DNA of 757 nt, from sequence record DQ372055.1; one strand, written 5' to 3'. Origin of the DNA: a phage. The notes below the pieces were generated by a model, which had not been told where the DNA came from, searched no databases, and worked only from the letters and a program-made list of their open reading frames with translations. Of this stretch, positions 1-757 are shown piece after piece; position 1 is the first letter of the stretch; every line of letters starts with the position of its first letter. A program made the translations under genes and the position numbers.

Positions 1-106
1 TGACGACGACATGGCTCGATTGGCGCGACAAGTTGCTGCGATTCTCACCAATAAAAAACGCCCGGCGGCAACCGAGCGTTCTGAACAAATCCAGATGGAG
101 TTCTGA
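1..106 (+). CDS. cII: cII transcriptional activator, C-terminal fragment (5' end outside window; codon phase starts at nt 2; stop TGA 104-106)
   Basis: Frame starting at nt 2 translates to [34 protein letters not shown], which matches the C-terminus of phage lambda CII as I recall it. Not in the ORF track because it is truncated by the window edge. Identity is recalled, not computed. Confidence 0.88.
52..78 (-). terminator. Rho-independent terminator of the oop-type antisense RNA (minus strand)
   Basis: Read on the minus strand: 5'-CGCUCGG-UUGCCG-CCGGGCG-UUUUUUAU. A 7-bp GC-rich stem (six Watson-Crick pairs plus one G-U) formed by nt 72-78 and 59-65, loop 66-71, then a U6 tract (plus-strand A6 at 53-58). 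On the plus strand the run of A precedes the hairpin, so it terminates only leftward transcription. Position within the cII 3' end matches the lambda oop terminator. Confidence 0.6.
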
Positions 107-129
107 GGTCATTACTGGATCAATCCACA
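52..129 (-). ncRNA. oop: oop-like antisense RNA (about 78 nt), antisense to the cII 3' end and the cII-O spacer
   Basis: Terminator at 52-78 on the minus strand, and a candidate promoter on the minus strand that places the transcription start near nt 129. Length and position relative to the cII stop match lambda oop. The 5' end is inferred, not observed. Confidence 0.5.
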
Positions 130-135
130 GGAGTA

Positions 136-164
136 ATTATGCCAAAACAACTCAGTCCTGACCA
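136..164 (-). promoter_or_regulatory. Candidate po-like sigma70 promoter for oop (minus strand)
   Basis: Minus strand reads TGGTCA (plus 159-164; 4/6 to TTGACA), a 17-nt spacer, then CATAAT (plus 136-141; 5/6 to TATAAT). Predicted start is about 7 nt downstream, near plus nt 129. The -10 overlaps the ATG of the small ORF on the opposite strand. Confidence 0.4.
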
Positions 165-285
165 GGACAAATTACACAAAAACATACTACGTGATCGGTT
201 CTTATCCAGCTTCAAACAGCCTGGTCGATTTCGGGCTGAGTTGGAGAAAGTGAAGCTAATACTGAAGAGGAAAGGTCATGAGTAA
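139..285 (+). CDS. Hypothetical small basic protein, 48 aa: [48 protein letters not shown]
   Basis: ATG at 139-141 is preceded by AGGAG (129-133) with a 5-nt spacer. This is the same initiation context that lambda uses for O, about 32 nt after the cII stop. Open for 48 codons to TAA 283-285; the other two + frames are closed across this stretch (stops at 134-136, 159-161, 251-253, 257-259). Composition is 8 K + 5 R against 3 D + 3 E. The stop overlaps the O start codon. No homologue recognised. Caveat: a 48-codon open frame arises by chance about 10% of the time. Confidence 0.45.
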
Positions 286-757
286 TCTTGCAACAGTTAC
301 ACCGATAAAACCTCATCTGGAGGTTGTGGAGCATCGCGTGGCAGAACTCGACGATGGCTACACCCGGACTGCAAATACACTGCTGGAAGCTGTCATGCTT
401 TCTGGGCTTACTCAACATCAGCTACTGATTGTTATGGCTGTGTGGCGCAAGACATACGGTTATAACAAAAAAATAGATTGGATCGGAAATGAACAGTTCG
501 CTGAACTCACTGGCATGGCGCCAACCAAATGTTCTACCGCCAAAAACGAGCTTATCAGAATGGGGGTTCTCACTCAGGTGGGGCGTCAGGTTGGTATGAA
601 TAAAAATATTTCCGAGTGGAAGACGAAGGTTAACGGATTCGGTAAAACATTTACCAGATCGGTAAAACTAACCTTCACCAAATCGGTAAAAACCAATTTA
701 CCGAATCAGTCAAACACAAAAGACAATATACAAAAGACAATAAATACAAATACCCCC
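278..757 (+). CDS. O: Replication initiation protein O (lambda O family), N-terminal iteron-binding domain; 3' end outside window
   Basis: ATG 278-280 is preceded by GAGG (267-270) with a 7-nt spacer. It is the first ATG after in-frame stops at 251-253 and 257-259, and the frame stays open to the window end (160 codons). Translation [65 protein letters not shown]...NELIRMGVL...GMNKNISEW...TKDNIQKT aligns with lambda O from residue 1 as recalled (MTNTAKI..., DLDDGYARLSNMLLEA, LRKTYGWNKP, NEAKLELVRM, GPNKNISEW, TKDTITKE). Iterons lie inside the gene, as in lambda. Confidence 0.88.
637..706. repeat. Origin iteron array: three dyad-symmetric O-binding sites built on TCGGTAAA / TTTACC half-sites
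   Basis: Forward half-site (A)TCGGTAAA at 639-646, 659-666 and 683-690. Inverted half-site TTTACC at 650-655 and 697-702, and a degenerate TTCACC at 674-679. The outermost 10-mers, ATTCGGTAAA (637-646) and TTTACCGAAT (697-706), are perfect reverse complements. Forward half-sites are spaced 20 and 24 bp apart. Position inside the O N-terminal-domain coding sequence mirrors lambda ori. A possible degenerate fourth site, GGTTAACGG, lies at 628-636. Confidence 0.7.
716..742 (+). repeat. Perfect 13-bp direct repeat ACAAAAGACAATA (716-728 and 730-742) in the A-rich tract right of the iterons
   Basis: Identical 13-mers one nucleotide apart (period 14). They sit in a strongly A-rich, strand-asymmetric tract (707-757) in the same place as the A/T-rich unwinding region next to the lambda iterons, which as I recall has the related motif ACACAAAAGACAC...ACAAAAGAAAAAAG. 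Confidence 0.6.

Follow-up and report, generated by a model that had tools for sequence, protein, structure and literature searches.

The right end of the 757-nucleotide stretch of phage DNA analysed here (the window, from DQ372055.1) carries an A-rich tract with a tandem 13-bp repeat beside an array of iterons, all within the gene for a replication initiator. A sequence-only reading had proposed this tract as a candidate DNA unwinding element, and the locus raises the question of what the repeat contributes: whether it acts as DNA or as the peptide it encodes, and whether anything besides a high A+T content is involved.

A P22-type replication module in a mosaic lambdoid genome

Window positions 114–757 agree with phage P22 orf48 and gene 18 at every base (100% identity), whereas positions 1–140 match the cII/oop region of lambda (38548–38687) at 97.9% identity with three mismatches. 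Identity with P22 begins at 114, and the lambda-type left end is joined to the remainder near 114–140. The source genome is accordingly a lambdoid mosaic whose replication module is of the P22 type. The genes present are as follows.

1–106, plus strand: 3' end of a lambda-type cII gene (the ORF at 11–106 translates to the lambda cII C-terminus)
139–285, plus strand: orf48, a short reading frame lying between oop/cII and the gene for the initiator, annotated as a CDS in BK000583
278–757, plus strand: gene 18, an O-like replication initiator gene (codons 1–160 of 271), running past the window end

The architecture fits the lambda/P22 hybrid hy106 (PMC3349717), and the source may instead be a natural mosaic such as UPF_BP1, which is 98.9% identical across window 44–757. 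The orf48 gene is missing from lambda (PMC3349717) and present in P22, where its last 8 nt also lie within the start of gene 18. From the P22 annotation, the antisense oop RNA also lies within the window on the minus strand, with its promoter at 136–164 and its terminator at 67–109. The orf48-18-12 segment gives lambda hybrids P22-type replication (PMC3349717).

The gene 18 portion in the window is 100% identical to that of P22, and its product gp18 contains a Phage_rep_O domain (Pfam PF04492) at amino acids 20–114 (E 7e-38; window 335–619). The curated P22 record, BK000583, labels gene 18 as 'origin recognition by similarity with phage lambda O protein' and places a rep_origin at 32840–32984, which corresponds to window 630–774; the P22 origin annotation is thus one made 'by similarity'. 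A search of solved structures with gp18 returned nothing relevant, and we know of no structure of an O-type initiator.

Organization of the iterons and the A-rich tract

The iterons lie within the annotated P22 rep_origin and, together with the tract, occupy the inter-domain part of gene 18. The features of this region are listed here.

629–715: four iterons with dyad symmetry inside each, presumed to bind gp18 (repeat family D1, inverted repeats I1/I2)
630–646: iteron core TTAACGGATTCGGTAAA
650–666: iteron core TTTACCAGATCGGTAAA
674–690: iteron core TTCACCAAATCGGTAAA
697–713: iteron core TTTACCGAATCAGTCAA
711–752, plus strand: A-rich, low-stability tract, a predicted DNA unwinding element and homologue of the 38–40 bp high-AT region of lambda
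716–728, plus strand: repeat copy 1, ACAAAAGACAATA, with its core ACAAAAGA at 716–723 in codon phase 0 (Thr-Lys-Asp)
730–742, plus strand: repeat copy 2, ACAAAAGACAATA, with its core at 730–737 in codon phase 2 (Gln-Lys-Thr)
746–752, plus strand: degenerate third unit, ACAAATA, closing the tract, as read from the sequence
753–757: first C5 run (CCCCC) of the element CCCCCTTACCCCCTAAAGGGGG, the right boundary of the tract

The sequence at 707–757 reads CAGTCAAACACAAAAGACAATATACAAAAGACAATAAATACAAATACCCCC. The tract begins at 711–716, directly 3' of the fourth iteron, and encodes amino acids ~146–158 of the 271-residue gp18. Its 42 bp (711–752) comprise 28 A, 5 T, 7 C, and 2 G, for an A+T content of 79% and an A content of 67%, and A makes up 57% of the larger interval 707–757. 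The two ACAAAAGACAATA copies are identical and separated only by T729, giving a period of 14; they extend to 14 nt at 93% identity, and the same tandem array is reported by TRF. At the position of the degenerate third unit some relatives have AAAGACAAATA.

A close direct repeat of at least 13 nt did not appear in any of 2000 dinucleotide shuffles of the window, and when only the tract was shuffled it appeared in 13 of 20000 (707–757) or 54 of 20000 (711–752). The repeat is thus more than low-complexity noise. The perfect 13-bp repeat and the A bias beside the iterons, both described by the sequence-only reading, are borne out by these results; its further statement that the window ends inside the tract is not, since the identical P22 sequence continues rightward as the G/C-rich CCCCCTTACCCCCTAAAGGGGG. 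The tract therefore ends at 752 and has a full length of about 42 bp.

In most iteron types there is an A-run (CAAAA or GAAAA) at the centre, on the same strand as ACAAAAGA, with dyad arms that differ from one type to another; the ACAAAAGA motif resembles such an iteron centre without its arms.

Duplex stability and the comparison with lambda and oriC

We calculated duplex stability from nearest-neighbour energies for 40-mers over a 3.6-kb P22 locus. The 40-mer at 713–752 has a ΔG of -42.8 kcal/mol (z 2.74), and no coding 40-mer in the locus has a lower stability; the sole less stable stretches are intergenic, in the PL/OL and PR/OR control regions. By the same measure the experimentally defined lambda region has a z of 2.85. 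No self-structure was found for the tract as single-stranded DNA. A second low-stability 20-mer lies within gene 18 at window 460–479 (TTATAACAAAAAAATAGATT, z 2.87), where it encodes YNKKID after the conserved RKTYG motif, and its low stability is probably a coding coincidence.

The correspondence with lambda is extensive. The lambda ori A/T region (39119–39160), like the P22 tract, lies within the initiator gene and follows iteron 4 directly; both are about 40 bp with an A-rich coding strand (z 2.85 versus 2.7), and both open with ACACAAAAGACA followed by TACAAAAGA at the same position. Copy 1 of the P22 repeat is homologous to lambda 39121–39128, the site of the ti12 mutation considered below. 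The initiators, lambda O and P22 gp18, belong to the same family (PF04492). The iteron sequences, in contrast, are unrelated, the motif copies are spaced 15 nt apart and in frame in lambda but 14 nt apart and out of frame in P22, and the partner proteins differ, P22 gp12 being a phage DnaB-type helicase whereas lambda uses P and host DnaB.

Unwinding itself has been demonstrated for lambda, to which P22 is likened by sequence. When lambda O is bound to the iterons on supercoiled DNA, the adjoining 40-bp A+T-rich region opens (PMC5043065, which cites Dodson 1986 and Schnos 1988 for the O-dependent opening), and the minimal fragment for unwinding consists of two iterons and the AT-rich region (PMC5043065, PMC7466680). 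Replacing the lambda AT-rich region with DNA of 57% GC leaves O binding to the iterons unchanged (PMC7466680), and the motif is therefore not needed to form the O-some. The position in the gene, the shared opening sequence, and a comparable instability place the P22 tract where lambda has its A/T-rich region, as the sequence-only reading supposed; together with the stability minimum they support its interpretation as an unwinding element, in which melting at the P22 tract would occur by analogy with lambda.

A rival account of these data is that only low stability and A/T content count, and that the duplication and the ACAAAAGA sequence are incidental products of slippage and common descent. 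Unwinding elements generally require only easily melted DNA (PMC5043065), and the tract is a local stability minimum, as this account expects. A 14-bp slippage duplication, however, would shift the frame of gene 18, and the distribution of the motif described below bears on this account more directly.

The repeat had also been compared to the 13-mers of Escherichia coli oriC, and at the level of function the analogy stands: both are tandem short A/T-rich repeats beside an array of initiator sites, at the place where the duplex opens first or, for P22, would be expected to. It does not extend to sequence. The tract matches the oriC 13-mer consensus GATCTnTTnTTTT only with at least three mismatches, the total of such matches in the window being within the chance range; there is no GATC; and for the DnaA box TTATNCACA there is one single-mismatch site in the window (595–603), equal to the chance expectation, and no DnaA box proper. 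The P22 initiator is a winged-helix-type phage protein whereas that of oriC is the AAA+ protein DnaA, and the P22 tract, unlike the oriC 13-mers, is located within coding sequence. We reject a DnaA-dependent unwinding element of the oriC type for the lack of both the 13-mer consensus and the DnaA box.

Conservation among gp18 relatives

To compare phages of the same iteron type we collected 82 loci with gp18 relatives (80 from IMG/VR and two GenBank phage records), among which 34 origin segments and 60 gene sequences are distinct. The first 13-mer is invariant in all 34 distinct origins of the P22 iteron type, and the perfect 13-mer pair is kept at 76 of the 82 loci and in 28 of the 34 distinct origins, so that the repeat is indeed conserved among phages with the same iterons. 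Among the 60 distinct relatives, nucleotide diversity (π) reaches its minimum for the whole gene at window 701–740 (0.005–0.014), compared with 0.04–0.14 in the N-domain and 0.13–0.28 in the C-domain. Some of this close-relative conservation may come from recent recombination rather than from selection.

Copy number and spacing vary within one iteron type: Pectobacterium polonicum (L173) has P22-type iterons followed by three tandem copies with a 15-nt period, two of ACAAAAGACAATATT and then one of ACAAAAGACAATAAA.

Distant blastn matches to the P22 origin are of two kinds. Lambda-like phages (82%) and Klebsiella, Pasteurella, and Providencia phages match across the tract, and ST104, HK446, mEp213, Nil2, and several Stx phages match from the tract rightward only, at 92–95%; in ST104, HK446, Nil2, and the Stx phages the iterons and the N-domain are unrelated to those of P22. 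The mosaic joint is exactly at the iteron/tract boundary (window ~706–716; ~700–712 in L084–L086), which fits module exchange inside the origin. A 754-nt contig assigned to 'Bradyrhizobium sp.' (NZ_JBMHJM010000007.1) is identical to the lambda ori region and is most likely lambda DNA contamination.

The pattern in ST104 and its relatives could also be taken to mean that the tract is conserved mainly as a joint for homologous recombination, where iteron-specific N-terminal and helicase-specific C-terminal modules change partners, and that its sequence plays no specific part in initiation. Such recombination does take place at the iteron/tract boundary; whether it accounts for the motif is taken up below.

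A strand-specific motif in most Phage_rep_O origins

The tract start, ACACAAAAGA(A/C)A followed by ACAAAAGA repeated 14 or 15 nt on, is shared by origins with at least five unrelated iteron types: those of lambda, P22, ST104/HK446/Nil2, Providencia, Pasteurella, Klebsiella, and PhiR68_2. The partner genes of these origins vary, encoding a lambda P-like protein, a DnaB-like helicase, or an AAA ATPase.

Because scans that use the motif itself are circular, we assembled a sample that was blind to the tract. Loci were identified by alignment of N-terminal Phage_rep_O domains only, 80 viral loci being fetched at 35–65% identity to a Deltaproteobacterial query, and motif copies were counted in the 320 nt after the N-domain in 74 distinct loci, or in 56 after dereplication at <80% N-domain identity. 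An exact ACAAAAGA is present in 60 of the 74 loci, and 69 of the 74 have at least two copies with no more than one mismatch. The copies are located directly after the last iteron, even though the iteron sequences are completely different between loci. All 110 exact copies are on the coding strand and none is on the other strand, and the density is 4.65 per kb compared with 0.075 per kb in the flanks, an enrichment of ~60-fold. Most Phage_rep_O origins have two to four tandem copies, mostly 14–15 nt apart: of 50 distances from one exact copy to the next, 21 measure 15 nt and 14 measure 14 nt, with the remaining ones at 13 nt or 20–30 nt.

A de novo census of 8-mers ranks ACAAAAGA first, in 46 of the 56 dereplicated loci, whereas the best 8-mer in the conserved coding DNA of the N-domain is found in only 13 of the 56. 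The extended consensus is Y-ACAAAAGA-M-A, with the A at +9 invariant in 89 of 89 copies. Ten of the 56 loci have no exact copy within 300 nt; some of these have an insertion that shifts the origin downstream, and others have only variants with one mismatch.

Averaged over loci, the 40 nt that start at the first copy have an AT content of 0.74, a value that agrees with the account in which only ease of melting matters. That account does not explain why the conserved positions should be the C and G of the motif together with the +9 A, why the motif is confined to one strand (110 to 0), or why it persists where the flanks and iterons have diverged and the N-domains share only 35–65% protein identity. 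Exchange by recombination likewise leaves the strand specificity unexplained, and the distant loci keep only an 8–10-nt core with no other DNA similarity.

Scans for the motif itself covered viral and genome contigs. With the tandem motif as the only criterion, the first 120 matches in viral contigs included 58 just 3' of a Phage_rep_O domain and 55 outside origins. A scan of genome contigs (596 Gb) for the extended motif, which is biased by construction and which we used for examples only, gave 120 matches of which about 105 are chance, with ~70 expected under uniform composition.

Well beyond the enterobacterial lambdoid phages, O-like initiators with iterons and the tandem motif are also present in a Nitrospirota metagenome-assembled genome (L140 1632–2864), where the protein has an N-terminal extension of ~160 residues, and in a Deltaproteobacterial one (L149 1107–1886). 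In some O-like genes there is an extra insert of ~100 residues (...GYIYVFAESECGPVKIGFTTRK...) between the Phage_rep_O domain and the iterons (L186 2394–3515; L266 and L280, after the N-domain), and the origin is consequently moved further downstream.

We did not find the motif described in the searchable literature; comparisons of lambdoid origins from 1979–1984 may already note it.

DNA element or encoded peptide

Since the region is an inter-domain linker, the repeat could reflect a low-complexity peptide (TKD..TKD) joining the two domains of the initiator, with DNA conservation as a by-product, a possibility that the sequence-only reading had itself raised. Each of the ten annotated O-like genes examined reads its first copy as Thr-Lys-Asp/Glu, the peptide too is duplicated where the spacing is 15 nt, and in the tract-blind sample 70 of 109 exact copies are in the same phase. 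In P22 and ST104, however, the spacing is 14 nt and the second copy is read as Gln-Lys-Thr, so that in P22 the two peptides are TKDNI and QKTIN; the peptide repeat is lost and the DNA repeat is still perfect. More broadly, 36% of exact copies are out of phase (phases 0, 2, and 1 have 70, 32, and 7 copies respectively), copies in two or more phases occur in 25 of 36 multi-copy loci, and one gene reads the motif in all three. The four copies in the Deltaproteobacterial gene are read as HKR, TKE, QKK, and QKK. The codons for invariant residues such as those of RKTYG are also conserved as 8-mers in at most 13 of the 56 loci, far fewer than the 46 that contain ACAAAAGA.

The genetics of lambda bears on the same question. 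Three mutations, ti12, r95, and r96, are listed as lambda origin mutations (PMC6022878). ti12 is a C>A change at lambda 39122, the C of the first ACAAAAGA (39121–39128), four bases past annotated iteron 4, and each of the deletions r95 (39123–39134, 12 bp) and r96 (39139–39153, 15 bp) removes one motif copy. O proteins carrying these changes, including the Thr>Lys substitution of ti12, complement O amber mutants in trans (PMC6022878). These observations indicate that the DNA is needed in cis, that the peptide is dispensable, and that base composition alone is insufficient, as ti12 raises the A+T content and is nonetheless an origin mutation. The cis requirement has been shown genetically for lambda only.

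We conclude that the repeat is a DNA element and not a protein linker repeat, and we regard an origin in the peptide as very improbable. The lambda mutations weigh on the other accounts too. An unwinding element defined solely by composition is unlikely given the behaviour of ti12 and the constancy of the motif, and a recombination joint without a role in initiation is quite improbable, because cis-acting origin mutations within the motif would have no explanation; the conserved sequence more plausibly gives rise to the recombination at the boundary.

The right-hand boundary element

To the right the tract is bounded by a C5-TTA-C5-TAAA-G5 element (CCCCCTTACCCCCTAAAGGGGG) at window 753–~776 (P22 locus 2140–2163), which is predicted to form a hairpin of -6.9 kcal/mol (z -3.3). 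A related arrangement, C4-6 N3-6 C4-6, follows the last motif copy in 9 of 46 tract-blind loci, compared with two occurrences in 131 kb elsewhere. In P22 the element is read as TPLPP and in Providencia as IPLTP, in a different frame, with the first Providencia motif copy in phase 0 and its C5TTAC5 element in another frame; because the frames differ between P22 and Providencia, this may be a second DNA-level origin element. Lambda has a different sequence at this flank and is without the C5/G5 element.

A G/C-rich hairpin next to the T-rich complement of the tract also resembles an intrinsic terminator on the minus strand, which would stop leftward transcription, and there is one such minus-strand site, with its stem at P22 locus 2160–2140 and the tail TATTTGTATT. 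One site found against 0.8 expected is a chance count, though, and the T-run is interrupted; no leftward promoter is annotated downstream, and in lambda and several relatives the tract is present but the C5/G5 hairpin is not. We find this explanation of the tract scarcely credible.

A model for the P22-type origin

None of the five rival readings (composition alone, peptide linker, recombination joint, terminator, and oriC-type element) fits the data as well as the following explanation. We propose, with a probability of about 0.85, that window 711–752 forms the A/T-rich half of an origin of the P22 type (lambda-like, Phage_rep_O), and that the tandem 13-mers are copies of a conserved, strand-specific DNA motif. 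By comparison with lambda, gp18 dimers on the iterons would shape the DNA, by bending or wrapping, into a complex like the O-some, and the stress of negative supercoiling would be relieved by melting of the adjacent tract, the least stable DNA nearby. Replication as established for P22 and lambda suggests the next step, in which gp18 would use its C-terminal domain to bring the P22 gp12 DnaB-type helicase to the opened strands. Most probably, the motif would serve a conserved part of the initiator as a site of contact or positioning on DNA that is open or opening.

The presence of Y-ACAAAAGA-M-A after the last iteron in most Phage_rep_O origins implies that the sequence of the tract matters besides its A+T content, and since the motif tracks the Phage_rep_O domain and neither the iterons nor the C-domain nor the helicase partner, the leading candidate for its reader is the conserved core of this domain. 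We therefore suggest tentatively, at rather less than even odds, that the tandem units constitute a family-wide, sequence-specific initiation element recognised by a conserved surface of O/gp18, probably as single-stranded DNA of one strand, which captures or positions the opened duplex for helicase loading. O proteins do bind single-stranded DNA, but the oligonucleotide used was non-native (PMC7466680), and this binding therefore is not usable as evidence for recognition of the motif.

There are precedents in layout. In the unwinding elements of iteron plasmids (RK2, F) and in the DnaA-trio, short repeats adjoin the last initiator site and, once the duplex has opened, one of the strands is recognised by its sequence (PMC10797057). 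The ACAAAAGA repeats have the same layout, strand-specific and fixed in position; the RK2 and F Rep proteins and DnaA are unrelated to gp18 and O. Were recognition of this kind to operate in Phage_rep_O origins, it would parallel that of the DnaA-trio and of Rep with single-stranded unwinding elements, and it would explain both the constancy of the motif despite changing iterons, C-terminal domains, and helicase partners and the inactivation of the lambda origin by ti12.

The A/T-rich part of lambdoid origins is already known and is annotated in the P22 genome. What this analysis adds is the DNA-level ACAAAAGA motif across Phage_rep_O origins, which coincides with lambda ti12, r95, and r96 and ranges from enterobacterial phages to prophages of Deltaproteobacteria and Nitrospirota. 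As a defined motif of 8–10 nt, it provides a handle for binding tests with single- and double-stranded DNA and for mutagenesis, and for spotting origins of this kind in phage genomes.
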